Origin: an uncultured Mollicutes bacterium
Lineage (GTDB): Bacteria > Bacillota_I > Bacilli_A > RFN20 > CAG-826
Length of the DNA stretch: 64,000 nt
NCBI GenBank assembly: GCA_900540365.1
Contig: UQFN01000005.1
Location: 21,231 to 85,230, forward strand
Direction of reading: 5' to 3'
Part shown: positions 1,527-37,928 of the stretch, one piece after another
Layout: the number at the start of each line of letters is the position of its first letter
How positions within the stretch are numbered: the first letter of the stretch is position 1
Notes under the pieces: generated by a model
The model's input: the letters and a program-made list of their open reading frames with translations, nothing else
Told to the model about the DNA's origin: nothing
Database searches by the model: none
Position numbers and translations under genes: made by a program

Positions 1527-2156
1527 ATGAAATTATTTAAAACTTCAAAACTTATAATGGTCACTGCCATTGCTTTAGGCTTAGCATCAGTCGTCGGTAT
1601 TGGTGTTGGTGCCTATATTATTACAGGAGGAAATAAAACCGCTGAAGTACCTGTTACTGATGATGATATAGTAATAACTAATAATGTTGTTAATTTAACA
1701 GCTTCTTTAAAATCAGATGATAATAAACTTGTCTATGAACCTACAGAAGCAGTAACCGGTAAAAGATTAAATTCAGATGGTAATGGCGACTTAGATGTTA
1801 CACTTGTTTTAAGTGTTGAAGCAACTTCAACAAATATTATTCCAACATTTACCGTATCTGTTGTATCAAGTTATAGCGCTGAATCACCTGAATTAACTGC
1901 TTTAAACACTTATTTAGTTAAACCATCTGATGTTACAGTTAGTAACACGGAATTTACTGGATCTGCTCCATACACTAAAGAAGTAAAATTAACTTGGGCT
2001 TGGGGTAGTGCTTTTAATACTACCGATCCTTGTACTTACTATAACAAAAAATCTGAAGAAGAAGTTTCAACTGCTACTTTAGTTAGCGAAATGGAAAGCT
2101 TTAGAGATAATGTTAATGGTAACACTTGGAAAATAGAAATTAATCCTGTAGAATAA
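1527..2156 (+). CDS. Cassette-1 protein A1: secreted/anchored protein with TasA/camelysin-style (SipW-dependent-type) signal peptide
   Basis: The track ORF starts at 1464, inside the putative promoter. ATG 1527 gives MKLFKTSKLIMVTAIALGLASVVGIGVGAYIITGG. This is a basic n-region plus an h-region ending G-x-G-A-Y, comparable to GGGTFAYFSD (camelysin) and GGGTWAAF (TasA). The gene lies directly 5' of a SipW-type peptidase. Confidence 0.65.
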   Translation: MKLFKTSKLIMVTAIALGLASVVGIGVGAYIITGGNKTAEVPVTDDDIVITNNVVNLTASLKSDDNKLVYEPTEAVTGKRLNSDGNGDLDVTLVLSVEATSTNIIPTFTVSVVSSYSAESPELTALNTYLVKPSDVTVSNTEFTGSAPYTKEVKLTWAWGSAFNTTDPCTYYNKKSEEEVSTATLVSEMESFRDNVNGNTWKIEINPVE

Positions 2157-2173
2157 ATAAATTTATTTTAACA

Positions 2174-3097
2174 ATGATTTTTTATATCATCTTAGGAATT
2201 GTTATAATCATTGATTTAATTATTGTTATTTTATTAATTACTACTTCTATTAAATTAATAAAAGAAATTAATTTAGGAAGTTATGATGCGCGTTTGGTTT
2301 TTGAACGACACGAAAAAGAAGTTAAATCAAAAAATAAAAAACACATTTTTCTAAGAAAATTTATTAATATAACTTCAAATTTATTAATTCTAATTATTGG
2401 AATAATGTTTTTAATTGGCGTTGTAGATAGTTTTGTTAACGTTTCAAATATCAAGACTTTCGCTGTTCCAACTGGTTCAATGTCGTATAAAAATGAAGAA
2501 AATACTTATTTAGTAGAAAACAATTTAAATAACCAAATACAAATAAATGATTTAGTATTTGTTAAAAAAATTAATTCCTTAGATGATTTAAAACTTTATG
2601 ACATTATTTGTTATAAAGATGATACTCGTAAGATTAACATTATCCATAGAGTAATCGAAATTAATGAAGATTATGTAAAAACTAAAGGCGATGCAAATAG
2701 TGAAATTGATTTAAAAAATATTTATTTTGATGACATTATTGGAAAATATATTGATGTTCGTGTTCCTTATATAGGTGGGTTTGTCTTATTTACATCTTCT
2801 AATTATGGCTTATTAACTTTTGCATCAGTTCTTCTTGCTTTATTAACTTATGCAATTAGTCGAAATAAAGTAGATGGTGTTGAAGAAAAAAGATTACAAT
2901 ACATTGATACTTATTTAGTTAATACAATAAACGAGTATGCAATTACTTCTAAATATGGTTATCTAGAAGTTAATAACAATAACTTTATATATAAAGAAAA
3001 AGAAGAAGAAAATACAGATATTTTTTCTTCTTCAATATTAAAAATTAACGATAAAGTTATTGCCCTTAGTAAAGGAGAAAAGAAAGATGAAAAATAA
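2174..3097 (+). CDS. sipW: Signal peptidase I, SipW / ER-archaeal type, enlarged (307 aa)
   Basis: Catalytic boxes appear in SipW order: VPTGSMS (Ser), IIHRVIE (His), TKGDAN (Asp). There are N-terminal TM helices, a C-terminal TM (GLLTFASVLLALLTYAI) and a tail of about 80 aa. Confidence 0.8.
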   Translation: MIFYIILGIVIIIDLIIVILLITTSIKLIKEINLGSYDARLVFERHEKEVKSKNKKHIFLRKFINITSNLLILIIGIMFLIGVVDSFVNVSNIKTFAVPTGSMSYKNEENTYLVENNLNNQIQINDLVFVKKINSLDDLKLYDIICYKDDTRKINIIHRVIEINEDYVKTKGDANSEIDLKNIYFDDIIGKYIDVRVPYIGGFVLFTSSNYGLLTFASVLLALLTYAISRNKVDGVEEKRLQYIDTYLVNTINEYAITSKYGYLEVNNNNFIYKEKEEENTDIFSSSILKINDKVIALSKGEKKDEK

Positions 3098-4865
3098 ACT
3101 TAGTAAAAAAGAATGGTTATTTTTATCCTTATCGTTTTTTATTGCTTTAATGGTATTTTTAAGCGGACTAGGAATGGATGCTGGACATACTGTTTTTGCA
3201 AAAGGTAATATTTTTGAAGGTTTTGCTGAATTATTTCAAATTCCTAAAATAACTGCTAACGCTGGAATTTGGATTATGCTCTTATTATTTAGTATTGCCA
3301 TAATTACAACAAGTGTTGCTATATTGTATGTAAGAAGATATTTAATAAAACATGATAAAGATCCTAATTCACTTGTTTCATGGCTATATTATATTGGTTT
3401 ATTTATAGCTTCATTTGCTTTAATGTTAGCAATTGGAACTCTTTTTCAAATTCCTAATGGACGTATTGAAACATATGGATTAACTTTAACTTATGTTTTT
3501 GGTGCATTAGTTATTGGAGTTTTACTTTTTGCAATTATTGCTATATTCTTTTGGGCTTTAATTGGGACTTTACTTTATATTTACCAACCAACCGTTCATC
3601 CTTCTAAACCATTAGTTGATGTATCTAAAGATTATGATGAAAAAGAAGACAAAGTAACTAATGATGAGCCATTAAAAAATACTTTATTAGGTAATAATAA
3701 CCAAACAATTAATACAAACTTGACTCCTGTAAGCACTGGTTCTTCTTTATTTAATAATGGAGTAATTGCTTCTAAAGAAAAAGTTTTTACTAATTTAGTA
3801 GCAATTGACGAAGAAGGTCCAATGAAATTTTTTGATGAAAATAAAGAAAAAATTACCTTAAAAGATTTAGTTGTTAATTTACAAATTTATTTAGCAAATG
3901 TTCATAACTTGTATTACAACAAAAATGAACTTGCTCAATTTATTGCAGGAATGAACGCATCTAAATTAATTATTTTAGAAGGTATCTCTGGAACTGGTAA
4001 ATCTTCTTTACCAAGATATTTTGCTAAATTTATTGGAGAAGATGCTTTCTTTGAACCAATTCAAGTTACTTATAAAGAAAAATCTGATTTACTTGGTTAT
4101 TATAATGAATTAACTGGTAGATATGTCGAAACTAATTTCTTAAAAGAACTTTATCGTGCAAGTATGAATACTGAACGTTTAAATTTAATGGTTCTTGATG
4201 AAATGAATATTTCTCGTATTGAATATTATTTTGCTGACTTTTTATCAGTTATGGAATTCCCTGAAAATGAACGTCAAATTCCAATTATGTCATTACCAAG
4301 CGATTATGATGCTCCAATAAATTTAAAAGATGGGATTTTAAACATAACTCCTAACACTTATTTTATAGGAACCGCTAATAAAGATGATTCTACTTTTACT
4401 ATTACTGATAAAGTTATTGATAGAGCGATTGTCATTGATTTTGAAGATACACAAGTTGAAGCTAAATATGATAAAAATATAACTCCTATTAGTTTATCTT
4501 ATGATGAATTACATAATTTATTTAACGATGCTTTAAAAACTCATCCTTTCAAAACTAAAGATCGTGAAGTGTTTTTAAGTTTATTAAAATTTATTAGTGA
4601 AGAATTGGGTATTGTTTCTGGTAACCGTTTAATTAAACAAATAGATTTAATGGTTCCAGTTTATAATTCAATGGAAATTGATTATACAATTTGCCTTGAT
4701 TATTTCTTAGCTAATAAAGTTTTAAGAAAACTTGATGTTGTTTATGATTCATCTTTAAAAAATCAATTAACTAAATTATTAAAGAAACTTGATGAATTAT
4801 ATTTAAAAGATCAATTTTTATATTCAAAACGTCTAATTACTCGTTTTATTAGGAGAATTAGTTAA
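3087..4865 (+). CDS. Membrane-anchored AAA+ NTPase of the McrB / AAA_5 (dynein-related) type
   Basis: RBS AAAGGAG lies 9 nt before ATG 3087, and the start overlaps the sipW stop by 11 nt. The protein has 4-5 N-terminal TM helices (aa ~15-185) and an Asn/Thr-rich linker. Motifs: Walker A GISGTGKSS, Walker B LMVLDEMN, and FIGTANKDDSTFTITDKVIDRA, which resembles the McrB MNxxDRS region. Confidence 0.7.
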   Translation: MKNKLSKKEWLFLSLSFFIALMVFLSGLGMDAGHTVFAKGNIFEGFAELFQIPKITANAGIWIMLLLFSIAIITTSVAILYVRRYLIKHDKDPNSLVSWLYYIGLFIASFALMLAIGTLFQIPNGRIETYGLTLTYVFGALVIGVLLFAIIAIFFWALIGTLLYIYQPTVHPSKPLVDVSKDYDEKEDKVTNDEPLKNTLLGNNNQTINTNLTPVSTGSSLFNNGVIASKEKVFTNLVAIDEEGPMKFFDENKEKITLKDLVVNLQIYLANVHNLYYNKNELAQFIAGMNASKLIILEGISGTGKSSLPRYFAKFIGEDAFFEPIQVTYKEKSDLLGYYNELTGRYVETNFLKELYRASMNTERLNLMVLDEMNISRIEYYFADFLSVMEFPENERQIPIMSLPSDYDAPINLKDGILNITPNTYFIGTANKDDSTFTITDKVIDRAIVIDFEDTQVEAKYDKNITPISLSYDELHNLFNDALKTHPFKTKDREVFLSLLKFISEELGIVSGNRLIKQIDLMVPVYNSMEIDYTICLDYFLANKVLRKLDVVYDSSLKNQLTKLLKKLDELYLKDQFLYSKRLITRFIRRIS

Positions 4866-5968
4866 TGAAAGAACGTACAATTTATCAAAATAATTTCCAA
4901 CTTCAAACAATTTATGAAATTAAATCTCTTTTAAGCCACGTCTATCATATCCTAAACTCTTATAAAGTAGATTTAAAACATTTTGATAATATTGTACGTA
5001 TTGAAGATTTTAAAAAATATGATCATAAATTAGTTAAAGAAAGTTTAAAAGATTCACGTTTATTTGGTAACCAAAATAATAATATTTATTTAAAACGTGT
5101 ACATTCTTATACTTATGAAACTGATTATGATATATACGAAAATCGATTTATTGTTTTCTTAGTAAAATATTTAAAAGAGACTCTTCTTGAATATTGCTAT
5201 CGTAAACAAAGCATTAAACTTCCATTTTTAAATACTGGGATTAGTTATGGAGAATTTGGAACTTATTCCTTACTTAAAAAATATTCTTTAGATACTTTAA
5301 ATAATAATTTTAATGATTCTATCGATGAATTTTCAAATTTAATCGGCGTTATAAATAATTTACTTAAAAAAGATTTCTTTAATAAAATTAAGCCTTTAAA
5401 TTCAAATGAAATATATCCAACTAATCTTTTATTACAAGATCAAAATTATTCTTTTTGTTATTTTTTCTATCTTGATATGATGAGAAATAATTTAGAAATA
5501 AATAACAAATTTAAATTAAGTTTAAAAAATAAACTTAAGGAACTTCAACAAAATTCATTTTTAACAACTAGTGATGGTTTTAAATTTAAAAAAGATGATT
5601 TTCTTTTTATTTTTAAAGAAAGTGAATATGGTTATAAGTTAATAATTCAAAATGAATTAATTTCATCTTTACATGAATATGACTTAAAGTTTGATGTTAA
5701 CTTATTTTTAGTAAAGTTAGTTATTATTAATGATCAAAAAAAATATAATTTCATGATTAATAATCTTGAAAAAGTCATTGAAATTATATATTCCTTAACT
5801 TCAATATTTAAAAAATCTCCTCTTATTTGTCCAATTTGTGGAGAAGAATTATTAACTGATAATAATTATTGTCATATTTGTCATGCTAAATGGGATAATT
5901 TAACAAACTCAGATGTTGTTTGGGTTTTTAACCCTTATGAAATATCTAAGGAGGTAGTATATGAATAA
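4865..5968 (+). CDS. Partner of the AAA+ gene: possible McrC-N/DUF2357-like region plus C-terminal zinc ribbon; no nuclease motif recognised
   Basis: The ATG overlaps the preceding TAA (TAATG). YDIYENRFIVFLVKYLKETL resembles the ENR helix I recall from DUF2357/McrC N-domains (memory only). CPICGEELLTDNNYCHICHAKW is a CxxC-x10-CxxC zinc ribbon. I find no clear PD-(D/E)xK triad. Confidence 0.5.
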   Translation: MKERTIYQNNFQLQTIYEIKSLLSHVYHILNSYKVDLKHFDNIVRIEDFKKYDHKLVKESLKDSRLFGNQNNNIYLKRVHSYTYETDYDIYENRFIVFLVKYLKETLLEYCYRKQSIKLPFLNTGISYGEFGTYSLLKKYSLDTLNNNFNDSIDEFSNLIGVINNLLKKDFFNKIKPLNSNEIYPTNLLLQDQNYSFCYFFYLDMMRNNLEINNKFKLSLKNKLKELQQNSFLTTSDGFKFKKDDFLFIFKESEYGYKLIIQNELISSLHEYDLKFDVNLFLVKLVIINDQKKYNFMINNLEKVIEIIYSLTSIFKKSPLICPICGEELLTDNNYCHICHAKWDNLTNSDVVWVFNPYEISKEVVYE

Positions 5969-7076
5969 ATTTAAACGTTTTTTAAAAGTTTTATTTTTAA
6001 GCGCTAGTATAAGTTTATTACCTAGTTGTGGGATTTTTGGTAATCAATATGGGGGAGTAATGATTTCAGGAATCACTGCTACAACTAATGCTAATGGTGA
6101 GACTGAATTAACAATTACTTTTACTGATGAAGATATTGAACCTGTTACTTTTGTTATTCCTCAAGGAGAACAAGGTGAAACTGGGGCTCAAGGTGCTCCA
6201 GGAGTAGGAATTTCCACAATTAATGTTTTTCCTTCGGAAGATGGTACATATTCGACAATAGTTATTACATATACTGATTCTTCTATTCCTTCAACTTCTT
6301 TTATTGTTGAAAATGGTGTTAGTGTTATAAATATTACTTCATCAATTAATATAGAAAATAACTCTACAATAATTGAATTTCACTTATCTAATGGTGAAAC
6401 TAAACAATTTGAAATTAAAAATGGTAAAGATGGAGTTGGTATTGAAAGTGTTATTGAAGAAAGAAAAGAAAATGGAGATGTTGTAATTACAATTACTTAT
6501 ACTGATGGTAGAGAACCTAGTGTTATTACTTTACCTTATAAAAATGGTGAAGATGGTCGAGGAATTCAATCAATAATCGGAACACAAAACGGAAACAACT
6601 ATGTGATTACAATTATCTTTACTGATGGAACTTCAACTGAATTAACTCCTATTGAATTACCAGAAACTACTAAATGGTTATATGGTCAAGGTGCTCCTAA
6701 CTTTAGAGTTGAAGAAGAAGCTAATCCCGGTGATTATTATTTTGATTTAGAAAATTACATTATTTACTTATATGATGGGGCAAATTTTAATCCAATTATT
6801 AATTTAACAGATATTCCTTCTTCTACTAAAAAGTATACTGTTAGTTTTGATGCTAATGGAGGAAGTTTTACTTCTTCTATTCCAACAACAATTACTGTTG
6901 ATGCAGGAAAACCAATTGATGCAAGTAGAATTCCAACTTGTTATAAAGAAAATTGTAAATTTATTGGATATTATACAACTCCTGAAGGTCCACTTAATCC
7001 TTTAAGTGGAAAACTTACCGATTTAGTTCCTATTTATAGTGACTATACGTTTTATGCTTCTTATGAGGAAATTTAA
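5961..7076 (+). CDS. Lipoprotein with collagen-like G-x-y triplets, five ~38-aa internal repeats, a tail-fibre-like segment and one Listeria-Bacteroides (Flg_new) repeat
   Basis: RBS AAGGAGG. Lipobox SLLPSCG. Collagen-like run GEQGETGAQGAPGVG. Repeat units end in NGKDGVG and NGEDGRG (ITFTDE.., VITYTDS.., ITITYTDG.., ITIIFTDG..). NPGDYYFDLENYIIYLYDG resembles phage fibre tips. C-terminal YTVSFDANGG...FIGYYT...YTFYASY is the Flg_new repeat. Confidence 0.7.
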   Translation: MNKFKRFLKVLFLSASISLLPSCGIFGNQYGGVMISGITATTNANGETELTITFTDEDIEPVTFVIPQGEQGETGAQGAPGVGISTINVFPSEDGTYSTIVITYTDSSIPSTSFIVENGVSVINITSSINIENNSTIIEFHLSNGETKQFEIKNGKDGVGIESVIEERKENGDVVITITYTDGREPSVITLPYKNGEDGRGIQSIIGTQNGNNYVITIIFTDGTSTELTPIELPETTKWLYGQGAPNFRVEEEANPGDYYFDLENYIIYLYDGANFNPIINLTDIPSSTKKYTVSFDANGGSFTSSIPTTITVDAGKPIDASRIPTCYKENCKFIGYYTTPEGPLNPLSGKLTDLVPIYSDYTFYASYEEI

Positions 7077-7087
7077 AATATTTTAAT

Positions 7088-7786
7088 ATGAAATTAATCA
7101 AAAGCAAAAAAATAGTATTTTCTATATTAAGTTTAATTGGAATTAGTTTAACTATTTCTACTGCTTTTGGTATTTATACAATCGTTGGAACAAGTAATAA
7201 ATCTATACTTGTTAATGATGAAGATATTATTATCAATAACTATAGTGATTTGTTAGTCTTACAAACATTAGGTAGTAACGATAAAATGTATACAGCTTAT
7301 GACTTAATTGTTAGCGATGAAATAGTTTTACCTTTTTTAATTAAAACTGATACTAAATATGATGATGTTTTATCTTCAGGCGGAATGAGAATTGAATTTA
7401 ATGTTCCAAATGAAAGTTTATTTAACTATACTCAACATAAATTAATTAATGAAAAAAATTTCTTTATATCAATTATTGGTAAACAAGTTTATGAAATGAA
7501 TCCTTCAACTAATTATACCTATTTAAAAAATAATGTTGCTTATAGTATTTTTGAAGTCGATTATACAAATAATAAATTTAATATTCATCTTCCTTTTACA
7601 AGAGATCATAGTGAAATTAGTAATTTTAATATTTGGGATTTAAAAGGAAATATTATAAATAACGAAGCTAGTTTTAGTTTAAAATTTGATTTTGATATCA
7701 TTGATGAATCTTTAGGATATTCAACTTTATTTAGTCCTAGTGATTTTAATAATTTTAAAATTGATATTTTTATTGAGGTATATTGA
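7088..7786 (+). CDS. Cassette-1 protein B1 with TasA-style signal peptide
   Basis: N-terminus is MKLIKSKKIVFSILSLIGISLTISTAFGIYTIVG. 232 aa. The TGA stop is overlapped by the next gene. Confidence 0.6.
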   Translation: MKLIKSKKIVFSILSLIGISLTISTAFGIYTIVGTSNKSILVNDEDIIINNYSDLLVLQTLGSNDKMYTAYDLIVSDEIVLPFLIKTDTKYDDVLSSGGMRIEFNVPNESLFNYTQHKLINEKNFFISIIGKQVYEMNPSTNYTYLKNNVAYSIFEVDYTNNKFNIHLPFTRDHSEISNFNIWDLKGNIINNEASFSLKFDFDIIDESLGYSTLFSPSDFNNFKIDIFIEVY

Positions 7787-7788
7787 TT

Positions 7789-10254
7789 ATGAAAAAGTTT
7801 AATAAATTTTCTTTAACTTTATCCATAATATGCCTTAGTTTATTAGCAACTACTAGTATAGCATTTGCTAGTTATATGATTGCTGAACTTACTTATAATG
7901 ATTTTACATCTTCGGATTTAATTAGCAATGATAATTCAAGATTACATCAAATTATTTTTATAGATGATTCAACGCAAGTTGGTGAACTTTATGTTAAACC
8001 TGATAGTAAAATTGATTTAAGTGATGTTCCATATCTATTTAATTCCAATAATGAATTATTAGAATGGAAAGATAGCTCTGGATCAACAAAAATTAGTTTA
8101 ACTCAATCATTTACACCAACTTCTGATACAACTTTAACTGCTTCAGTTGTTTCTAAAACTGATTTAAATAGTGCTGTAAACGTTGAAAGTGGCTCAGGAG
8201 TATCAGTTTCTAGTAATTCTGTAACAATAAATCAAACTACATCTAGTGGTACATCTAATATAGTATCAATTAGCGGAAATATTGATAAAACAATTACGTC
8301 ACAAAGTTATGATGCATTTGGCTCAAATAATGTTTTTGCTGATCTAAGCGACAAGGAATCATTTTTTAGACCTGATAGAAAAAATCAAGCAAGTGGAAAC
8401 AATACTATTGGATTATCAGATAATACATTAGCAAACAAGATAAACTTATCAGGTGATTTAGTAATCACTAATTCAACTTTTAATATAAGTGCTTGGACAG
8501 GGTTTTATAATAGTTACGATTATTCGCAAATAAATTTCCAAGGCTATATAATTGGTAGTTACACACAGCTTGATTTATGTGGAAATAATTTGATTGTTGG
8601 CAACGGAGCAACCTTAAATGCTTATGGTCAAATTGTTGATAGCGTAGGCGGTGGTAAAATTATCGTTGAAAAAGGAGGGACTTTAAAATCAACCTTTGTT
8701 GTTGAAGATCATGTTCACGAGAGACACACTCCTGTTATATACGCATATGGTGGCAGTATTTTTTCAATGTATCGTATGGCATATTTAAATTGCGATATCG
8801 AATTTAGATATGGTTCTTCTGCTTATGGAATTTTGAGAATGGATTTTGGTGGCAATAATGATAATTTTTATGATGGGGAATTAAAACTTATTGGTACCGA
8901 CTCTTCATCATATATTCAAATGAATTCAAATAAAACTGATGGATATATTTTAAGAGAACATACAATTGATGCTGGTGTTCAAAGTGCAATATCTAGTAAT
9001 GATTTTTCTAAAAATAATCTTTTAAATCAAAAATATAAATATTCTTTTAATAACTTAGATATTACGATTAATCCACCAAAATTTAATATTTCATTTACTT
9101 CAGTACTAATTACTTTAAAATTCGATATAAATTTTGGTAAGGGAAACAATTTCATCCCACCATATTTTGATTTCTATTTATATGATACAAAAGTGACATT
9201 AAAAGCTAATTATACATTTTTGACTGGTTCATATTTATATGTCGATTCAAAATCGATAATTAACTTATCTGGTGATTCTAGTGGACATTTTCAGGCTCCA
9301 TCTTTAATTTCAGGTAAATTTACTGAACACTATTATCAAGCTAAAGGTGGTTTAAATTTTGTTTCTCAAAAATGGTATTTTAACGATGCAGTTACTTCAA
9401 AAGATAAAGGATGGTGTCTAGGAAGAGATAGCGAAGATGGTGGATTGTATGGTATTGGAAATAATATCATCTATTCTAGTACAAAAGTATTTTGGGGCTA
9501 TTTAAATAGAAGTAAACCAAGTTATTGCGATATGGAAGGTACTTTTACTTTTGATGATACTTATACTTCAACAACTACTAATGATAAAAAATATATGCTT
9601 GGTGGAAATATAAATATTTCGAATATTGAGACTTTTAAAAATGTAGTAAATTCAAGAAATGATGTTTATTTATATGGATCTACTGCTAAAATTGGACCAT
9701 GTGGATCTTATGGTGTGCCCTATAACTTTGGCACACATATAGTAGGTGTTACAGACTATTTTATTTCACCATTAATTAGTGATGGAAATGTCTTAACTAA
9801 TATGAAGGATAAAACTAAAGTAAGAGAAGATTACGCTAGTTCTTATTCTTCGTATAGTACGGAAACTGGATTAGTTAATTATGGTGGAAAATATTATGCT
9901 TTTATGACTACTAATGCTGAAGGAACATCTTTTAATAATGATAATTCAGGACATGTTAATAAGAGTAATTATGGTAGCGATGAAAACGCCTATCGAAATG
10001 GATTAGATTCTTGTTATGGTACATTTGTTGAAGTAACTAATAATTCTGCTAGTCATTCAGTTATTTGGAATAAAACTGGAGAGACTTATGTTTATTATCG
10101 TGGTATCTTTTTACCATTTACTTATGGTAGTTTAAGTTCTTCTACGGTTAATATGAATAAAATGTCAATTCAAGCTGTTGGAAATCGTACAATAATTTGG
10201 AAAACTTCTAGTACTGATAATTATTATGGGCATGGAGCATGGTGGATATTATGA
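7789..10254 (+). CDS. Cassette-1 giant protein C1 (about 821 aa) with TasA-style signal peptide and beta-helix-like Gly/Asn-rich repeats
   Basis: ATG 7789 gives MKKFNKFSLTLSIICLSLLATTSIAFASYMIAE. Segments such as GNNLIVGNGATLNAYGQIVDSVGGGKIIVEKGGTLKS look like passenger-type beta-helix rungs. Confidence 0.65.
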   Translation: MKKFNKFSLTLSIICLSLLATTSIAFASYMIAELTYNDFTSSDLISNDNSRLHQIIFIDDSTQVGELYVKPDSKIDLSDVPYLFNSNNELLEWKDSSGSTKISLTQSFTPTSDTTLTASVVSKTDLNSAVNVESGSGVSVSSNSVTINQTTSSGTSNIVSISGNIDKTITSQSYDAFGSNNVFADLSDKESFFRPDRKNQASGNNTIGLSDNTLANKINLSGDLVITNSTFNISAWTGFYNSYDYSQINFQGYIIGSYTQLDLCGNNLIVGNGATLNAYGQIVDSVGGGKIIVEKGGTLKSTFVVEDHVHERHTPVIYAYGGSIFSMYRMAYLNCDIEFRYGSSAYGILRMDFGGNNDNFYDGELKLIGTDSSSYIQMNSNKTDGYILREHTIDAGVQSAISSNDFSKNNLLNQKYKYSFNNLDITINPPKFNISFTSVLITLKFDINFGKGNNFIPPYFDFYLYDTKVTLKANYTFLTGSYLYVDSKSIINLSGDSSGHFQAPSLISGKFTEHYYQAKGGLNFVSQKWYFNDAVTSKDKGWCLGRDSEDGGLYGIGNNIIYSSTKVFWGYLNRSKPSYCDMEGTFTFDDTYTSTTTNDKKYMLGGNINISNIETFKNVVNSRNDVYLYGSTAKIGPCGSYGVPYNFGTHIVGVTDYFISPLISDGNVLTNMKDKTKVREDYASSYSSYSTETGLVNYGGKYYAFMTTNAEGTSFNNDNSGHVNKSNYGSDENAYRNGLDSCYGTFVEVTNNSASHSVIWNKTGETYVYYRGIFLPFTYGSLSSSTVNMNKMSIQAVGNRTIIWKTSSTDNYYGHGAWWIL

Positions 10255-10985
10255 TAAATGAAAATAAAATGATTGAAGTTAAAAATTTAAATAAATCCTA
10301 TGGTAAACATCAAGTGCTCTTTGATGTTAATTTTGATATTTATGAAGGGGAGTTATTTGGCTTAATTGGTAAAAATGGAGCTGGAAAATCTACTACTATT
10401 GAATGTATTTTAGGAGCTAAAAAATTCGATAGTGGAGAAATTTTAGTTGATCATAAAAATATTAATAAAGATGCTTTAGAAATTAAAAAAATAATTGGTT
10501 ATGTTCCTAGTGAACCAACTTGTTATTTAGATATGACTGGTTATGATTACTTAAATTTTGTTGGAAGTTTATATCAAGTAAGTTTTAAAACTTTTATCGA
10601 TAATGTTGATTTTTTAGTTAAATTATTTGATTTTTTAGAAAAAGATTTATATCGACCAATTAGAGAATATTCTCATGGTATGCAACAAAAGATATGTTTA
10701 ATGGCTTCTTTAATTCATAATCCTAAAATTTGGATTTTAGATGAACCAACAGTTGGTCTAGATCCTGTTGCTGCTAATGAATTAACTAAATTAATAAAAG
10801 AATTTATTAAACATAATAAATCTTGTTTTATTGCTTCACATAATATTGAGATGATTGCTAAATTATGTGACCGAGTTGCAATTGTTAAAGATGGAGAAAT
10901 TAGTGAAATTATCGATTTAAAAAATAATCCAAATATGCGTAGTAAGATACCAAGTATTTTTATGAAAGTTTATAATTTATTATGA
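10251..10985 (+). CDS. ABC transporter ATP-binding protein (ABC-2 exporter type) with degenerate signature motif
   Basis: ATGA overlap with the C1 stop. Walker A is GKNGAGKST. The signature position reads YSHGMQQK instead of LSGGQ. Walker B is WILDEPTVGLD. Confidence 0.85.
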   Translation: MINENKMIEVKNLNKSYGKHQVLFDVNFDIYEGELFGLIGKNGAGKSTTIECILGAKKFDSGEILVDHKNINKDALEIKKIIGYVPSEPTCYLDMTGYDYLNFVGSLYQVSFKTFIDNVDFLVKLFDFLEKDLYRPIREYSHGMQQKICLMASLIHNPKIWILDEPTVGLDPVAANELTKLIKEFIKHNKSCFIASHNIEMIAKLCDRVAIVKDGEISEIIDLKNNPNMRSKIPSIFMKVYNLL

Positions 10986-12595
10986 TTACTTTAAAAATTG
11001 CTTTAAAAGAAATTATGTCATTAGCCTTTTTTAACAAAAAAGGTTATAAAAAGTATCTTTCGTTAGCTACTTCAATTATTTTAATGGCTTTTTTTATCTT
11101 CTTAGAATGTTTTTTATACATTATGATTTTTAATAAAGTCGATGTATTTATAGATTTAAATTATTCTTTAATTATTATTATTTTATCGATATTTACTTTT
11201 ATTGGAACAATCTATTCGATGATTACTTGTAATAAAATATTTTTCTCTAATAAAAAAGAAAGAATAATTTTAGGAATTTCTCCAGTTAATATTTTAGAAG
11301 TTATTATTGGAAAATTAATTTTTGTTTATTTAAAGACTTTTATTTATTTTACTTCAACCTTTTTTGTATTTGCTTTAACTTATGGAATTAAAGTTCAAAC
11401 AGATTTTATATATTTTATTTGGATGTTTCTTTCTATTTTTATTTTAAGTTTAATGAGTGTAGGATTAGGAATATTATTTACTATTCCTTTTAGAGAAATT
11501 ATTAAATTAGTAGTAAGGTTTAAAATTATTAGTTTTATTTTAATTGTTATTTTAATTATATTACTTGCTGTTGGATATAATTTATTAATGAAATTATTTA
11601 TTGATTTATTAAGAAATGCTTCTTTAGATACTTTATTTACAACTCAAAATGTAGAAACTTTAAAAAAAGTTGCTAATAGTTTATATCCTTTAAAAAGTGT
11701 TGTTGATTATGCTTTAGTAATTAATAGCGGAGTTAATGCTTTAATTATTTTAACTTTTAGTCTTTTATCTATTTTATTTGGAGTGTTCTTTTTCTACTTC
11801 TATTTAAAAAATTATTATCATAACGATGATCAAGCTAAAGATATTAATAAAGTAAAATCTAAAAAAGTAAAATTAATTTCTCCAATACAAGCTTTAATAA
11901 AAAAGGAATTTTTATTGTTATTAAATAATAATGATGGATTATTTTCATATATCTTTTTAGTAATTTTACAACCATTCCTTGTTTATAGCGTTATTTCTAG
12001 TTTAAATTTAATTTTTTCTACTGGTAATTTTATTTATATAAACACTTTATTTCCTGAAATTTATTTATGTGTTGATATTTTACCAATCTTATTATTTTTA
12101 TCAGTTATTAATATGACATCTTCAATGTCTTTAACAAAAGAACGTCAAACCTTAATCATTATGAAAACAATTCCAGTTTCCTTTTTTAAACAAGTATTAG
12201 TTAAACTAGGAGTAAATTTTGTTGTTTCATTAATATCATATATAGCAACATTAATTACTTTAATTGCTACAAAAGAAATTAGTTTATATACTTTCTTATT
12301 TTTAATTATTATTGGAACATTAGCTTTACTTTGTTTAAATATTATTTCAATTAAAAGTGATTTTAAATTTAAAGCAAATTCCGATTTATTATCAATTTTA
12401 GTTGGTTTTGTTTTCCCTGTTTTATATGTTGTAGTTGCCACAATATTTATAATTTTTATAGAAACTTCTCAAACTGAAATTTTCTTTTTAAGTATAATAG
12501 CTCTTTTAGAATTAATTACTTTAGGAATTCTACTAATTAAATTTAAATCAAAAATTACTGAACAATTTTTAAATTATGAGGGGGTAAGTCTATGA
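10982..12595 (+). CDS. ABC exporter permease, about 12 TM
   Basis: ATGA overlaps on both sides. The 537-aa protein is uniformly hydrophobic with two 6-TM halves. Confidence 0.7.
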   Translation: MITLKIALKEIMSLAFFNKKGYKKYLSLATSIILMAFFIFLECFLYIMIFNKVDVFIDLNYSLIIIILSIFTFIGTIYSMITCNKIFFSNKKERIILGISPVNILEVIIGKLIFVYLKTFIYFTSTFFVFALTYGIKVQTDFIYFIWMFLSIFILSLMSVGLGILFTIPFREIIKLVVRFKIISFILIVILIILLAVGYNLLMKLFIDLLRNASLDTLFTTQNVETLKKVANSLYPLKSVVDYALVINSGVNALIILTFSLLSILFGVFFFYFYLKNYYHNDDQAKDINKVKSKKVKLISPIQALIKKEFLLLLNNNDGLFSYIFLVILQPFLVYSVISSLNLIFSTGNFIYINTLFPEIYLCVDILPILLFLSVINMTSSMSLTKERQTLIIMKTIPVSFFKQVLVKLGVNFVVSLISYIATLITLIATKEISLYTFLFLIIIGTLALLCLNIISIKSDFKFKANSDLLSILVGFVFPVLYVVVATIFIIFIETSQTEIFFLSIIALLELITLGILLIKFKSKITEQFLNYEGVSL

Positions 12596-15152: not shown

Positions 15153-15200
15153 AAAAATTCTAATGAGTTTTCTCTTAATAATATGCTTTATTAATAAATT

Positions 15201-15224
15201 AAAAGCAGCTTGTTAGCTGCTTTT
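15201..15224. terminator. Bidirectional rho-independent terminator between convergent genes
   Basis: aaaa GCAGCT tgtt AGCTGC tttt: a 6-bp GC-containing stem flanked by an A-run and a T-run. Confidence 0.7.
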
Positions 15225-29284: not shown

Positions 29285-29288
29285 TTTT

Positions 29289-29687: not shown

Positions 29688-29688
29688 A

Positions 29689-29709: not shown

Positions 29710-29711
29710 TA

Positions 29712-31742: not shown

Positions 31743-31753
31743 CTTTTTCCTCC

Positions 31754-32617: not shown

Positions 32618-32936
32618 CCCTCCTGTTGTCTATATACTGCGATTAATCTCTTTAATTTTAAATAAACAAAACTGTGATTTCGATAAACATTTTGTTGAGT
32701 TAATTTATAATTAAGTATTTATAAAATTAAATTATTCTAAAATAAAAACCTTACTTTATAATTATACTTTAAACTACTTGATTTTAATGTCATGTATAGA
32801 ATTCATATATTTTTTATTAAGATTAAGATATTATTTTTCTTTAATATTAAATAAATAAAAATATTTATTTTAAATTTTATTTAAGTTTTAAAAGGTTTTA
32901 GTTAAAAATTTACTTTTAATAATTAATAGGAACTAT

Positions 32937-35510
32937 TTAAGATCCTGTTTTATCAAAGTATAAAATATAGTTTTTCATTACTCTTAAATTCAAAACTAAA
33001 TTTCCTGTATTATCAAAATATCCAATTAAAGCATCAGTAACAAAATCTCTAATTAATAAATTTTGTTTGGTATATCCATTTGTATTAGAGTTAATAAAAC
33101 TTTCAACTGCTTCTTGGAATGTAATTTGAGTTGAATTAAAACTAATATCACAGGTATCGCTACGTTTCATATTAACTCCAAGATAATACTTCTTTCTCCA
33201 TAATAAATAATCAAAATCAGTTCCGTCAGCATTTTTATGGATAGCAAGTCCAGTATTTGTATCAATGCTTACTTTATTTTCAAAAAGTTTAATGAAAATA
33301 TTAGTATGACGATATGTATATACATTAAATTGATCGCTATCTTTATTATATTCAATTAAAATATCATAAATACCTCGATCATTTTCATAATCATTTAAAC
33401 TTAAAGCATTTTCTTTTACATTTGTACTAGCAATTGTAATTTGCTTTGCATTAAACCATAAACTAGCATTAGTAAATACATCTTCATCATTAAATTTAAA
33501 TTGATTGTTTGCATATGTTGGATTAAAAATTAGTGCTTCATTATTATTTAATGGATTTAAATTATATAATTCACCATCGACATTATAATATTCATTATTA
33601 AATCGAATTTGCATTAATAAATTAGTGCTAATCTCTGTTAAATCAACATTTTGTGCTAAATAAATATAACTATTGTTTTCTGTTAATTCACTAGTTGAAT
33701 CTACTACATAAGCTCCACTTGAATTTAATGTTGCTTTATATAACTTAGCATTTAAATTATAAAATTTTGGAGCATTAACTTGTTTGTTTAAATCTGAATC
33801 GAAAGTTTTATCATCTATATAAGAGCTATTTAATTCCTTATAAAATGAAGCTTCAGCTATTTTTTCTACTAGTAATATGTATGGACGATTAGTATATATA
33901 TCACTAATTATTATATTATCTTTAAATAAATATTCTAAAACTCCTCCTCCTTTATTAGTATCTTTGCTAATATATGATAAATTTTTATTATAAATTTGTT
34001 TAAAGACAGTTAAATTGCTTGTAACATTATCGGCAATAGTAGATATGTTATTAAATCCTGCTGTGGAACTACTTGCTGTTGTGTTTCTTCCAACTACCAA
34101 ATAAAAATTATAAAGCCCAAGACCATAGTTATTTTTAATATATGTTATAATGCTTGAACCAGTTATGGAAGTATTTGAACCATAAAATGCTGCCCACGGT
34201 TGACCTCCCCAATGTCCAGCACTCTCTGCAGGATGTATTGCTATTTCTAAATCGGTTATATTTTCATTTATGTTAATGTTTGAAACATAGCCAATGTTTG
34301 TATTATTTATTCCATTAATAGGTGTACCTGCTTCAGAACCTTGAAAATATAACATTGGATATCTTGTTGAGTTTCCGCTTTTATCTTTAATATCCATTCT
34401 TAAAGCATCTCTTCCACCTTCAGAAATTATATCTTTATAACCTTTGGAATTTGAAAAAACTGGGAATAGTCTAATTACATTATCTTTATCAGCAAAGCCT
34501 GATAAAGCTTTATTTATATCAAAAAATTGATTAATGTCTTTACTTCTAAATACGGAAATTTCAATACTATCATCACCAACTTTGCAAGGATAAATTGGAT
34601 TGTCATTTCCATCAAAATCAACATAAGTCCACATTGCAAAATTTAATTCGTACCAACCTTCTTGATCGCCCATTGAAGTCCATGGGGTCATTGTAAGCTT
34701 AGAAAAATCACCTTGAGAAATAGATTCAAAAACCTCTATTTTTTGAGGTAAGACTCTTCCTTCATCATAATTTAAATTTGGCCAAAAACCAAATCGATCA
34801 TTTTTAAAATGCCTTCTATTATTATATTGACTATTATTAAAGTTAATATGATTAAATTTACCACTATCAAATCCATTTAACTGATTTTGATCTATATAAT
34901 AATCATCCCATGAAGTATTTGTAGGAATTACTCCTTTTCCATTAGAGTCGTCTTTTTCACCAAAATCGCTACGAGCATTATGACCACCATTTAATCCTGA
35001 TTCTCCGATTCCATTAATTTCTAAATCATAGACAATTTGGTAACCATAAACTTCAGCTTTGTTATACTCCATTACACCTAAGCCTTTTTGTGCGACTATT
35101 CTTTTAGAATTGTCTAAATATTCGTTATTATTATTAACATAATCACGATATGTTTCTTTGCTAGATTGTTTTAAGGTTTGCTTATAAGAAATATTTCCAG
35201 AACTATCTTCAATAGCTTCAATATAACCAAAAGCATCTTCTGGTTTGATAGTACTTCCATTTAAATAATCTTGATAAATCTCTAAATATAACGTACTTGG
35301 AAATAAATATATAGTGTAGTCTTTTCCAACATAATCTTCTCTACCAAATACATAATTTTCTTCGATATTATCAACTCTAATTTGATCTTCAATTAATTGA
35401 CTAGATTTAACTTCATCACTAAAAATAAAATATGCAAAAGCACTACTTGTAGCAATTGCTACAATTCCAATTAAACTTAAAAGAAATGTTTTAAATTTAA
35501 ATCTAACCAT
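32937..35510 (-). CDS. Cassette-2 giant protein C2 (about 857 aa) with TasA-style signal peptide
   Basis: ATG 35510 follows GAGGGG and gives MVRFKFKTFLLSLIGIVAIATSSAFAYFIFSDE (compare camelysin TFAYFSD). It overlaps the B2 stop by 8 nt. Confidence 0.65.
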   Translation of the reverse strand: MVRFKFKTFLLSLIGIVAIATSSAFAYFIFSDEVKSSQLIEDQIRVDNIEENYVFGREDYVGKDYTIYLFPSTLYLEIYQDYLNGSTIKPEDAFGYIEAIEDSSGNISYKQTLKQSSKETYRDYVNNNNEYLDNSKRIVAQKGLGVMEYNKAEVYGYQIVYDLEINGIGESGLNGGHNARSDFGEKDDSNGKGVIPTNTSWDDYYIDQNQLNGFDSGKFNHINFNNSQYNNRRHFKNDRFGFWPNLNYDEGRVLPQKIEVFESISQGDFSKLTMTPWTSMGDQEGWYELNFAMWTYVDFDGNDNPIYPCKVGDDSIEISVFRSKDINQFFDINKALSGFADKDNVIRLFPVFSNSKGYKDIISEGGRDALRMDIKDKSGNSTRYPMLYFQGSEAGTPINGINNTNIGYVSNININENITDLEIAIHPAESAGHWGGQPWAAFYGSNTSITGSSIITYIKNNYGLGLYNFYLVVGRNTTASSSTAGFNNISTIADNVTSNLTVFKQIYNKNLSYISKDTNKGGGVLEYLFKDNIIISDIYTNRPYILLVEKIAEASFYKELNSSYIDDKTFDSDLNKQVNAPKFYNLNAKLYKATLNSSGAYVVDSTSELTENNSYIYLAQNVDLTEISTNLLMQIRFNNEYYNVDGELYNLNPLNNNEALIFNPTYANNQFKFNDEDVFTNASLWFNAKQITIASTNVKENALSLNDYENDRGIYDILIEYNKDSDQFNVYTYRHTNIFIKLFENKVSIDTNTGLAIHKNADGTDFDYLLWRKKYYLGVNMKRSDTCDISFNSTQITFQEAVESFINSNTNGYTKQNLLIRDFVTDALIGYFDNTGNLVLNLRVMKNYILYFDKTGS

Positions 35511-36246
35511 TTGTCCCCTCAAATCTAGCTGTAAATTCTATATCAATAGTCCAATATTTACCATATTTTGTGAAATCTTGATACAAAGTAGTATATTTAG
35601 TTAATGTATTAGGTTTTACCTTTTCACTAGCATATGCAAAAATATCACCTAAATTAATTGTTATAACATATTCTTGAATTTTTAATCCTTCATACCCAGT
35701 TGCATTATCGACAAATGGATCGCTAACAGTATAAGGATAATAATCTAATAAATTTACAAAATTATTATTTGCATATAAATTAGATGAGATTGTAACATAT
35801 TTTGATAATGGTACTGCATTTTGATCAGTTGAAGTATCAGTAAGAATAGATATTTTTGCTCCTAAAACAAATCTAATATCACTAGGTAAAGTAAAATCAT
35901 TCACTTCACGGTGAAATATGACCTTAATTTCATCGTTTTTAACTAATTCATATTTATTAGTAACATTACTATAAGTACTTTTATAAAATTCTAAGCCTTC
36001 ATTTAAATCGGTTGAGGAATTTCCTTCTTCAAATAACATAAAAGTAGGAAACACTTGATTATCATGGGCATTTGCAAAATGTCCTAAGTTAGCTTTTGAT
36101 GATATATTAATTGGTATTCCAACTTCTTGAGATAAATCTCCAGCTTCACTACTATAAAAAACCCACACTCCAAATCCACTACCAACAAATAAAAAAGTAG
36201 TTAAAAAAGGAAGAACAGTTACTAATAATTTATTTTTAAACCACAT
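35503..36246 (-). CDS. Cassette-2 protein B2 with TasA-style signal peptide
   Basis: N-terminus is MWFKNKLLVTVLPFLTTFLFVGSGFGVWVFYSS. 247 aa. It overlaps the sipW-2 stop by 11 nt. Confidence 0.6.
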   Translation of the reverse strand: MWFKNKLLVTVLPFLTTFLFVGSGFGVWVFYSSEAGDLSQEVGIPINISSKANLGHFANAHDNQVFPTFMLFEEGNSSTDLNEGLEFYKSTYSNVTNKYELVKNDEIKVIFHREVNDFTLPSDIRFVLGAKISILTDTSTDQNAVPLSKYVTISSNLYANNNFVNLLDYYPYTVSDPFVDNATGYEGLKIQEYVITINLGDIFAYASEKVKPNTLTKYTTLYQDFTKYGKYWTIDIEFTARFEGTNG

Positions 36247-37270
36247 TATTAGTATCTTCCTTTAGTTGAAAACTAATATTATAGTCTTCATCTATTTTCT
36301 TTGAAAGTTCTAAAATCTTATTATCATAAGTTTTTTCAATTAAACCTTCAGCAACGTTATATGTAATTAAAAATAAGAAACTAGCTGCAAGAGCAACAAG
36401 TCCTATATTTGATTGCAAATAAATAAGTGTGACACCTAAGCCATAATTTTGAAAACCATTATATTTACCAACTACTTTATCAAAAGTTAATGTTAATTCT
36501 TCTGCTGAAGAAGTATCATTAGCATCTCCTCTTAAAGTATAATAAGTAACATTAGTTTCTTCATTTTGATATATTCTTATAACGCGGTGAACGATAATAC
36601 TTCCACTTTCACTTTTATAAGCCAATATATCATATAATTTTATATCGTTTTCACTATAAATTTTATCGATTCCAATTAAAGAATATTGTTCAATTTGATT
36701 AGTTAAATTATGTTCTTCAATATAATTATTTTCATTATTAACTGTTTCCATTGATCCTGTACGAATAGTTAATAATGTAGTGTCACCAAAAAACAATTGT
36801 TCTCCACCAATTTTAAAACCTAGTGCAAAACCAAAAATTATTAGTAATGCACAATAAAGAATACCAAATAATGTGTTCATTATAATTTGATATTTCTTGT
36901 TTCTTTTCTTGTCTATTAATATTGATTCGTAAACACCTATTGGTTCATCTACTTTAGCATTTTTAATTTTCTTTTTTAAATCTCTTCTTAAAAAAGTTTT
37001 AATATGTGGTTCGTTTTGAACTAAATAATAGTTCAAAACGCTTACTTCCACATCTTTATTTTTTTCTTCTATTTTAGGTTTTTCTAAAACATAACGATAT
37101 TTTCTTTTTAAAGAAGATTCAAGTTTATCATCTTCATGACCTAATTTAATATGTCTAATTTTATAATGACCATATAGTCCGAATAAAATACTAAATACAA
37201 TTGCGAATCCGATGATTACACACATTGAGACAATAAAAGCTATAAAAGATAGTCTTTCTTGTCCGTTCAT
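36236..37270 (-). CDS. sipW: Signal peptidase I, SipW / ER-archaeal type, enlarged (344 aa)
   Basis: Catalytic boxes are IRTGSMET, IVHRVIRI and LRGDAN. It has a ~135-aa N-terminal extension with two TM helices and a charged loop, plus a C-terminal TM and tail. Confidence 0.8.
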   Translation of the reverse strand: MNGQERLSFIAFIVSMCVIIGFAIVFSILFGLYGHYKIRHIKLGHEDDKLESSLKRKYRYVLEKPKIEEKNKDVEVSVLNYYLVQNEPHIKTFLRRDLKKKIKNAKVDEPIGVYESILIDKKRNKKYQIIMNTLFGILYCALLIIFGFALGFKIGGEQLFFGDTTLLTIRTGSMETVNNENNYIEEHNLTNQIEQYSLIGIDKIYSENDIKLYDILAYKSESGSIIVHRVIRIYQNEETNVTYYTLRGDANDTSSAEELTLTFDKVVGKYNGFQNYGLGVTLIYLQSNIGLVALAASFLFLITYNVAEGLIEKTYDNKILELSKKIDEDYNISFQLKEDTNNVV

Positions 37271-37301
37271 ATAAAAAGTAATATTTAAAAATAATTAATT
37301 A

Positions 37302-37928
37302 CTAGGCACCAACTTCGACAACTACTGCCGACCATTCAAAAGTAATTGAGGCCTTTGCTAAATTACTTTTCATTGTCCCATAATCAATTGAATTTCCAGG
37401 TTTTTTGCCTTCTATATACTCTAAGAATGTACATACATCTCCTGACATTAATGAAATAGTATCAGTTAGTCCTGTATTTGAAGTAACATCTTGCGTTAAT
37501 GTATGAACAGTTGAACCAGGTGTATAATCTGATAATCCTGTTACTTTAACATAATCTAATAAATTTGCAGTGAATGTGATAGTTCTAGTAACTTCAACTT
37601 TCATTCCAGCAGAAGTTAAATTCTCATAAGCTCCGTCTTTAAATGTAAATTTAGCACCAACGCTAGCTGCATCAAAACTAATTCCTTTCTTAACATCAGT
37701 TCTATTTTGAAATCCGCCTTGATCAAGCGTAAGTGTTGTAGCTTTTGTTTCATTTAATGTTAAAGTACCCACAGCATTATCAACCATATCTGAAACGATG
37801 ACATTAACATTTTGTTCTGCTTCCTTAATATTATTTTCGCTAAAATACCAAGCTGAAAAACCACTACCAACAAGTGCACTAACGGCTACTGCTGGTAAAA
37901 CTAACGCCAATAATTTTCTATTTAGCAT
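37302..37928 (-). CDS. Cassette-2 protein A2 with TasA-style signal peptide
   Basis: RBS AGGGGGA lies 8 nt before ATG 37928 and gives MLNRKLLALVLPAVAVSALVGSGFSAWYFSENN. The track start at 37970 lies inside the promoter. Confidence 0.65.
   Translation of the reverse strand: MLNRKLLALVLPAVAVSALVGSGFSAWYFSENNIKEAEQNVNVIVSDMVDNAVGTLTLNETKATTLTLDQGGFQNRTDVKKGISFDAASVGAKFTFKDGAYENLTSAGMKVEVTRTITFTANLLDYVKVTGLSDYTPGSTVHTLTQDVTSNTGLTDTISLMSGDVCTFLEYIEGKKPGNSIDYGTMKSNLAKASITFEWSAVVVEVGA

Follow-up and report, generated by a model that had tools for sequence, protein, structure and literature searches.

The DNA analysed here, which we call the window, is a 64,000-nt stretch of contig UQFN01000005.1 from an uncultured Mollicutes bacterium, with a G+C content of about 25% and with TGA as a stop codon. 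It contains two loci in which the gene for a SipW-like signal peptidase (S1 or S2) stands beside genes for predicted secreted proteins (A, B and C) that carry a common class of signal peptide. The first locus, type 1, is a ten-gene operon (A1, S1, a membrane AAA+ ATPase, a DUF2357 protein, a lipoprotein, B1, C1, an ABC transporter ATPase, a permease and D1). The second, type 2, is a four-gene unit (A2-S2-B2-C2) with no transporter gene. A first-pass annotation of this DNA had described two paralogous A-SipW-B-C cassettes with conserved order and sizes and strongly diverged sequences. The gene sizes agreed with our measurements, and the peptides it had quoted (six signal segments and the motifs LNTYLVKPS and LLDYVKVTG) were all present. 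The type-2 locus has the proposed composition, but cassette 1 is non-contiguous, with three genes between S1 and B1; the order is common to both only if the extra cassette-1 genes are left out, the loci having ten and four genes.

The type-1 operon lies on the forward strand behind a putative promoter region (1445-1526, +), kept in two sister strains (L028 and L029), with a TTGACA -35-like box at 1445-1450. A1 (1527-2156, +; 209 aa) has a signal ending in ...GVGAYIITGG and is predicted to be exported. S1 (2174-3097, +; 307 aa) matches the models TIGR02228 and PF10502 of the endoplasmic reticulum (ER)/archaeal type of signal peptidase I and has three predicted transmembrane (TM) segments. The three genes between S1 and B1 are on the same strand and have overlapping or abutting frames. 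They encode a membrane AAA+ ATPase of 601 aa (3060-4865, +; four N-terminal TM segments, Walker A GTGKSS, McrB/AAA_5-like by PADLOC model PDC-M26A), its putative partner, a DUF2357 protein with a McrC-like N-terminal region and a C-terminal CPxC...CxxC zinc ribbon (4865-5968, +; PF09823), and the lipoprotein Lp1 (5961-7076, +), conserved in type-1 loci, with lipobox LPSC and a C-terminal Listeria-Bacteroides repeat (Flg_new). Lp1 also has a short collagen-like stretch, GEQGETGAQGAPGVG, and, ahead of the Flg_new repeat, internally repeated beta-rich modules. B1 (7088-7786, +; 232 aa; signal end ...STAFGIYTIVG) and C1 (7783-10254, +; 823 or 821 aa for a start at 7783 or 7789; signal end ...SIAFASYMIAE) are likewise predicted to be exported. 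Downstream of C1 (10239-15117) are an ABC transporter ATPase of the DrrA/GldA-like ABC-2 subfamily (10239-10985, +; PF00005 E 2e-28, with NCBIfam matches), which is conserved in type-1 loci, and a 537-aa permease, recognised from synteny and from a prediction of about 12 TM segments (10982-12595, +), whose gene overlaps that of the ATPase by 4 nt. D1 follows (12592-15117, +; 841 aa), with a single N-terminal TM/signal segment and orthologues in L004, L010, L021 and L023; it was present in every type-1 locus extending far enough. The first strong terminator-like hairpin (15198-15227; 13-bp stem, then a T run) comes after D1.

The type-2 unit lies on the reverse strand. A2 (37302-37928, -; 208 aa; signal MLNRKLLALVLPAVAVSALVGSGFSAWYF) is predicted to be an exported protein and was modelled by AlphaFold2 (AF2) as a beta-sandwich. 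S2 (36236-37270, -; 344 aa; NF046067, TIGR02228) has three predicted TM segments, a long N-terminal extension and the Ser/His/Asp triad. B2 (35503-36246, -; 247 aa; signal end ...VGSGFGVWVF) and C2 (32937-35522, -; 861 aa, or 857 aa from an internal Met; signal end ...SSAFAYFIFSD) are the other two predicted secreted proteins. Directly 5' of A2 is the best sigma-70-like promoter match of the region (37959-37986, -; TTGACA-16-TGnTATTAT, 11/12), and the ATG at 37928 has a GGGGG ribosome-binding site in front of it. Three sister strains (L025-L027) keep both the TTGACA box and this ribosome-binding site. Promoter scans as such were uninformative at 25% G+C, where they gave fewer matches than in shuffled sequence. 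A 19-nt palindrome, ATAACACAAAATGTGTTAT, within 37955-37987 overlaps the spacer and -10 box of the A2 promoter match and is operator-like. It was rejected as a conserved element since it was absent from L025-L027, whose spacer differs.

SipW-like peptidases and their signal-peptide class

The claim that each cassette has its own peptidase was borne out, as S1 and S2 both matched models of the ER/archaeal-type signal peptidase I. S1 scored 61.6 bits against TIGR02228 (cut-off 51.85) and 23.2 bits against PF10502 (cut-off 22.9), and S2 scored 43.1 bits (E 4e-11) against TIGR02228, just under the cut-off. Against the equivalog model of Bacillus SipW, NF046067 (cut-off 190 bits), both were far below, with 52.6 bits for S1 and 48.2 bits (E 9e-13) for S2. 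By these scores S1 and S2 are SipW-like peptidases and not SipW orthologues. They were 35% identical over 195 residues of the catalytic domain (E 9e-26), and the description of the cassettes as paralogous and strongly diverged holds for the peptidases; between the cassettes, the A, B and C proteins share significant similarity in the signal peptide only. The Ser of (T/S)xSM, the His of HR(V/I) and the Asp of GDA (Ser102 in TGSM, His158 in HRVI and Asp173 in GDAN of S1, with the same positions in S2) were found without exception in S1, in S2 and in the 19 related peptidases. By analogy with SipW as described in the literature, we assigned the Ser and the His, which replaces the Lys of P-type enzymes, together with the Asp, as the presumed catalytic residues.

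In a neighbour-joining tree of the peptidase catalytic domain, S1 fell into a clade from type-1 loci and S2 into a clade from type-2 loci, with a third clade from metagenome-assembled genomes (MAGs) of Clostridia. The tree of SipW paralogues proposed in the first-pass annotation thus tied each peptidase to its own locus type across many genomes, and since the clades split by locus type, the two loci of the window are best seen as old distinct systems, not as a recent or lineage-specific duplication. The peptidase motif ENNLxNQI served as the search pattern of the genome scan and is not usable from that scan as a hallmark; a variant form also occurred in the L021 and L023 peptidases, which were found independently of it.

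The signal peptides of the substrates have a common layout, with a basic N-terminus and a hydrophobic core followed by G-F-[A/S]-[A/S]-W-[V/Y]-[I/F] or close variants. The consensus was (L/I)(V/I)S(V/T)-G-F-A-A-W-V-I-T-G in the A1 family (135 representatives) and LVGSGFSAWYF in the A2 family (75 proteins), and the B and C proteins carried variants of the same signal. Within the A1 family the signal was present in 140 representatives. No NCBIfam signal model matched the six substrates at E<=0.1. A post-hoc scan with the motif detected it in 31 of 467 open reading frames (ORFs), all of them within peptidase loci. In the A2 family the mean pairwise identity was 90.7% for the 29-residue signal and 43.4% for the mature part. 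TasA is cut at TWA↓AF, where the W at P2 and the F at P2' hinder LepB and the ER-type SipW is needed (PMC10269814). When GF[AS]↓[AS]W was aligned to this site, a W, Y or F stood at P2' in all six window proteins (6/6) and an F at P2 in five (5/6), the cleavage site being the one predicted by the alignment. By analogy, aromatic residues around this putative site may give the rationale for a dedicated peptidase. The linkage of a peptidase gene with genes bearing the special signal recurred in 19 or more loci of other genomes, and dedicated peptidase-substrate sets, as the first-pass annotation had suggested, are therefore the natural reading.

Relationships among the secreted proteins

We compared the substrates using family profiles from 75 A2 homologues, 17 A1 homologues, 19 loci obtained by a peptidase-alignment scan of the genome collection, and 432 A1 representatives. 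BLASTP of A1 against A2, B1 against B2 and C1 against C2 gave signal-peptide matches only. A full-length jackhmmer link between the A1 and A2 families (E 9e-6) and a phmmer match of A1 to B1 (8e-5) were both rejected as signal-driven because they were lost when the signals were trimmed. Trimmed profiles of the A2 and B2 families gave an hhalign probability of 97.4% (E 1e-11, 165 columns), with which jackhmmer agreed, and on these profiles A2 and B2 are paralogous. No significant match was obtained after trimming for A1 and B1 (hhalign, jackhmmer) or for B1 and B2 (hhalign), and trimmed B1 showed no mature-domain similarity to A1, A2 or B2. C1 and C2 aligned in the signal peptide only when full-length profiles were compared and gave no significant match when trimmed. 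In the B1/B2 and C1/C2 pairs, then, the pairwise and profile alignments detected no mature-domain homology, an outcome that the first-pass annotation had itself named as speaking against its reading. A possible relation of C1 or C2 to D1 was also rejected, the alignment being confined to the N-terminal hydrophobic segments.

The A1/A2 pair was less clear-cut. Trimmed hhalign comparison gave P=0.09, and P=0.01 with a 140-sequence A1 profile set against A2/B2, over the last helix and strand only (23-27 columns), and the A2 and B2 hidden Markov models (HMMs) were matched by 0 of 148 A1-family representatives. The weak colinear similarity reported earlier is thus not significant in sequence or profile, but the order of secondary-structure elements in the AF2 models is colinear: A1 and A2 have the same element order in the C-terminal 120 residues, and LNTYLVKPS (A1) and LLDYVKVTG (A2) occupy equivalent helix-to-strand positions. 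A shared fold is possible, going by these models. The A2 model was good (pLDDT 77.5; a beta-sandwich and three helices, residues 1-36 disordered) and that of A1 only moderate, with a pLDDT of 56.6 for the whole protein and of about 78 between residues 87 and 209.

A1 belongs to a large unnamed family with the signature F.WG..F...NP..YYN, for which an exhaustive HMM search gave 432 cluster representatives at E<=1e-3; the type-1 A family comprises at least 432 clusters at 50% identity. None of the 75 A2 homologues was named or had a Pfam domain. B1 is fast-evolving and has few homologues, with 22% identity to its L002 orthologue. None of the six substrates matched Pfam or NCBIfam at E<=0.1, including the TasA/camelysin family PF12389, and A1 had no Pfam, NCBIfam or PDB match; the same databases gave none for D1, the permease, C1 or C2. 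PDB sequence and profile searches with A1 and A2 and with the A2, C1, C2, AAA+ and D1 families gave no meaningful match, and the A2 profile none at E<=10. Foldseek searches of the models against PDB and BFVD gave no match at E<0.001, and TasA was outside the top 50 PDB matches of the A1 and A2 models. Self-complemented FimA was among the weak top matches of both models (E 0.03-1.1, TM-score 0.2-0.34, not significant), and we take this modelled likeness as a lead, not as evidence.

Locus types in other genomes and variation between strains

Related loci were found in MAGs labelled as uncultured Mollicutes (UMGS482), Acholeplasmatales, Bacillales/Bacilli and Firmicutes bacterium CAG:631. In phmmer maps the type-1 order A-S-AAA-DUF2357-Lp-B-C-ABC-permease-D was observed in L002 and L003, and parts of it in L009, L010 and L004. 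In CAG:631 and in a 1.7-Mb contig (ERZ28759971 contig_1252), contexts reached via the A1 family and not via the peptidase, the order was A(s)-S-AAA-DUF2357-like-ABC-permease-D-lipoprotein, and A was only 20-25% identical; the type-1 core of A, S, AAA+, DUF2357, ABC, permease, D and lipoprotein was thus syntenic even there. B and C were absent from the type-1 loci L010 and L021. The type-2 order A-S-B-C recurred in L012, L014, L015, L016, L018 and L020 and in the sister strains L025-L027. Judged from this gene content and sequence comparison, the window holds genes of old, separately conserved systems, that is, two different locus types and not diverged copies of one cassette. The view of the cassettes as diverged duplicates was not upheld: trimmed profiles gave no significant match, gene content differs and the peptidase clades separate by locus type.

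Some of these loci had features of their own. L004 (9378-12529), a type-1 locus without AAA+/DUF2357, has three tandem A1-like genes and a fourth small signal-bearing gene, and in one copy the SipW-type signal end is replaced by a lipobox (LTSCG). One contig of Bacillales bacterium UBA6380 (DJQS01000011.1) carries two S2-clade peptidase loci 17 kb apart (L013 and L015), one being a standard A-S-B-C unit and the other a peptidase after an 839-aa protein of the same signal type; several peptidase loci per genome thus occur outside the window as well. In a distant type-1 locus the A genes are immediately preceded by a gene for a resolvase/serine recombinase (PF00239; L021, 8444-9040; L022, 3241-3846), a hint that phase variation or mobility may occur there. 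The window has no equivalent of this gene, and an invertible promoter or phase-variation switch in the window was rejected because only AT-rich inverted repeats of a chance-expected kind were found.

The AAA+/DUF2357 pair received separate attention. The P-loop core of the ATPase matched the PADLOC candidate-defence model PDC-M26A (E 3.4e-41), and Pfam AAA_5 matched all seven AAA+ orthologues (7/7) weakly, all under the gathering score (best E 4e-4); the family had no PDB sequence match. Four predicted TM segments, kept in orthologues, take up the N-terminal 177 residues of the ATPase, where McrB has its DNA-recognition domain. The DUF2357 protein scored 39.2 bits against PF09823 (cut-off 23.3) and its zinc-ribbon cysteines are invariant; no nuclease domain was found in it and no PADLOC partner model matched. 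Insertion of AAA+, DUF2357 and Lp1 into cassette 1 as a recent event was ruled out, because the same arrangement is kept in L002, L003, L009, L010, L021 and L023. The fixed position, the overlapping frames and the 98-100% identity between strains argue that the pair is part of the type-1 operon.

Variation between sister strains was measured as nucleotide identity in alignments of type 2 with L025-L027 and of type 1 with L028 and L029. In the type-2 region the neighbouring CotH-family gene (92-93%), S2 (97-98%), B2 (93-94%) and the A2 signal region (91-94%) were conserved, and the variable parts were the A2 mature region (56-77%) and C2 (93% to L025, 72-73% to L026 and L027). Most type-1 genes were 97-100% identical, with 91-93% for mature A1 and 77-88% for C1; the central core of C1 (about 8201-9700) was hypervariable, at 64-69% nucleotide identity versus 97-100% for flanking genes. 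Nei-Gojobori estimates of synonymous divergence (dS) were 0.39-0.93 for A2 versus 0.08-0.12 for S2, 0.38-0.64 for C1 versus about 0.05 for its neighbours, and 0.69-0.80 for C2, so that the dS of the variable alleles was 4-10x that of flanking genes. The ratio of nonsynonymous to synonymous divergence (dN/dS) was 0.4-0.96 for A and 0.05-0.27 for machinery genes. This variation of A and C fits old divergent alleles that recombination would exchange and that would persist in the population, a pattern to be expected of exposed surface antigens or receptors. Since the alleles vary between strains at each locus, diversification acts between strains, and not between cassettes; in this form the earlier suggestion that a surface product is diversified can be retained for A and C.

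The surroundings of the type-2 locus were also compared. A CotH-family lipoprotein gene (38760-40229, -) is the upstream neighbour of type 2 in all sister strains (PF08757 on the L025-L027 orthologues). Between it and A2 the window has a yidD-like ORF (38083-38427, -; PF01809 E 8e-17), where L025-L027 have a gap of about 360-400 nt. On the 3' side of C2 (29712-32617, -) the window has a protein with a helix-turn-helix and four TM segments and a Flg_new lipoprotein. L026 (11525-12711) and L027 (11169-12398) have a 409-aa TIR-domain protein there, and L025 (7130-7770) has neither kind; this stretch has the look of a small variable island with a possible link to defence. Further upstream (41627-45201, -) lie overlapping frames for an 838-aa coiled-coil ATPase and a 353-aa metallophosphoesterase, SbcC/SbcD-like and ordinary-looking, kept beside the locus in L026.

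Interpretation and comparison with known systems

We consider it moderately probable that the window contains two different, separately conserved secretion or surface-structure loci organised around paralogous SipW-like peptidases and encoding hypervariable exposed subunits. The cognate peptidase would cut the signals at GF[A/S]↓[A/S]W, with aromatics at P2 and P2' that LepB-type peptidases would handle poorly. The released A and B proteins (beta-sandwiches of about 180 aa) and the large C protein could then assemble into an exposed surface structure, most likely a fibre of the TasA/TapA or pilus kind in which C would be the adhesin, and whose exposed parts may be under frequency-dependent selection by host immunity or phages. 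In type 1 the AAA+/DUF2357 pair, ABC transporter, D1 and lipoprotein might serve export, assembly or anchoring. Several points weigh against this interpretation. Cleavage, secretion and filament formation are all deduced from sequence; A, B and C showed no detectable sequence or structural relation to TasA, TapA, camelysin or pilins in Pfam, PDB profile and Foldseek searches, the FimA similarity being not significant (E 0.03, TM-score about 0.3). S1 and S2 could be type-I signal peptidases of general use, the AAA+/DUF2357 pair has a likeness to defence modules of the McrBC type and its function could be unrelated to the secreted proteins, and hypervariability would also be expected for secreted toxins or other phage receptors.

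The alternatives differ in which part of the evidence they take as incidental. Descent of both cassettes from a duplicated ancestral A-SipW-B-C unit, with substrates diverged beyond recognition and the cassette-1 extras added later, would account for the paralogous peptidases, the single signal class of all six substrates and the similar sizes of A, B and C in both cassettes. It would also account for the equal length of A1 and A2, whose models share the C-terminal element order with a Y-containing motif at equivalent positions, and for the repeated selection of the same C-terminal helix-strand by hhalign (P about 0.01-0.09). We find it doubtful all the same, since no pair had significant mature-domain similarity even with the 140-sequence A1 profile, C1 and C2 align full-length in the signal only and not significantly once trimmed, and A2 and B2 are related while A1 and B1 are not detectably so. 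Each locus type has moreover its own peptidase clade, and even in deeply diverged genomes type 1 keeps the AAA+/DUF2357/ABC/D genes as its core, in some of them without B and C (L010, L021). That S1 and S2 are the organism's general type-I signal peptidases, set by chance beside genes with ordinary Sec signals, seems highly improbable: the GF[AS][AS]W-type end occurred only in genes adjoining these peptidases in all loci examined, the A2-family signal is, at 91% identity versus 43% for the mature part, unlike ordinary signal peptides, and lipoproteins and other exported proteins in the window have no such motif. To our knowledge many Mollicutes-like genomes lack a LepB-type peptidase, which counts in favour of general peptidases, as does the fact that our view covers 64 kb of the genome.

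Two further alternatives concern the function of the products. The loci might encode secreted polymorphic toxins, bacteriocin-like effectors or enzymes, with the ABC transporter as exporter or immunity pump. Hypervariable, anciently diverged alleles are typical of polymorphic toxins too, and the ABC ATPase resembles the lantibiotic-protection and PSM-export subfamilies, among many others. We nevertheless hold this to be very unlikely, as no toxin, immunity or enzyme domain was found in A, B, C or D, C1 varies in its centre and not by exchange of a C-terminal module, the small A and B proteins are predicted beta-sandwiches without catalytic signatures, and type 2 has no transporter. For the AAA+/DUF2357 pair alone, a McrBC-like anti-phage or restriction module merely sitting in the operon, with no role in secretion or assembly, is suggested by the PDC-M26A match (E 3e-41), by the McrC-type N-terminal region of the DUF2357 protein and by other defence-like genes, for a TIR protein and an SLFN/AlbA_2 protein, near these loci in related strains. 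This explanation appears rather unlikely to us: the pair lies directly 3' of the peptidase gene with overlapping frames in at least seven loci in which A has diverged to 20-36% identity, the ATPase carries four TM segments and not a DNA-binding N-domain, the partner showed no nuclease domain or PADLOC match, and the pair is 98-100% conserved between strains, unlike a variable defence island.

The reading of the loci as peptidase-centred surface systems can be set beside known ones. The tapA-sipW-tasA operon and donor-strand fibres have been described (PMC9245690, PMC9674648), and the concept of a dedicated peptidase has its precedent in this operon. The loci of the window resemble tapA-sipW-tasA of Bacillus subtilis (and also sipW-tasA-calY of B. 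cereus and sipW-bsaA of C. perfringens) in that a peptidase gene stands beside its substrate genes, in the beta-rich substrates of about 200-260 aa and, if the predicted cleavage site is right, in the small and aromatic residues around it (TWA↓AF in TasA, GF[AS]↓[AS]W predicted here). They differ in that their substrates have no detectable sequence or fold relation to TasA/camelysin or TapA, and that a secreted protein of about 820-860 aa (C) is added, as are, in type 1, the membrane AAA+ ATPase, DUF2357, ABC transporter, D1 and lipoprotein. SipW has about 190 aa, whereas the peptidases here measure 307-344 aa, carry one more N-terminal TM segment as well as cytoplasmic extensions, and score far below the SipW equivalog cut-off. 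Donor-strand filaments (FimA, the archaeal bundling pili AbpA, archaeal threads) likewise have small beta-sandwich subunits with a flexible N-terminal segment, as modelled here, the large accessory protein could be a tip or adhesin, and self-complemented FimA was among the top, though non-significant, Foldseek matches (E>=0.03, TM-score about 0.3); unlike in chaperone-usher pili, neither locus has chaperone or usher genes.

The type-1 pair resembles McrBC-type modules (PADLOC PDC-M26) in its apparent AAA_5/McrB-like P-loop core and in the adjacent DUF2357 (McrC-type) region. It differs in the four TM helices of the ATPase N-terminal domain, in a partner with a zinc ribbon and no recognisable nuclease, and in keeping one and the same place within a secretion-type operon in diverged genomes. 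Type IV pilins and variable surface lipoproteins of Mycoplasma also have a conserved N-terminal signal or 5' end and a hypervariable mature part exchanged between strains. Here, however, the enzyme is an S26 ER-type peptidase and not a prepilin peptidase or Lsp, and the window has no silent cassettes or repeats and no evident invertible element.

In the literature we found no description of these loci and nothing on surface structures of these lineages, and for the families of the substrates, for the large proteins C and D and for the association of AAA+, DUF2357 and ABC genes the libraries searched offered no Pfam domain, no informative name and no match in the literature. As a speculative extension, to which we give a minor chance, type-1 loci would form an undescribed system for protein export and surface assembly in uncultured, Mollicutes-like gut Bacilli of low GC content, with a membrane-anchored McrB-like AAA+ ATPase and its DUF2357 partner recruited from a restriction-type module, and type 2 would be its minimal, machinery-free sister. 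If a membrane McrB-like ATPase does belong to the system, the finding would add a new role to this class of ATPases and be a caution for defence-system predictors that list such ATPase genes as candidates.

The lineages concerned (uncultured Mollicutes, Acholeplasmatales and Bacilli; e.g. CAG:631, UMGS482) appear only as MAGs in the public data searched, and the loci are a concrete candidate for their main exposed surface structures. They provide two new protein families without domain annotation, as well as a recognisable export signal by which substrates of SipW-like peptidases may be listed across whole genomes. They also offer what appears to be a natural case of strain-level allelic replacement of surface proteins beside invariant machinery.

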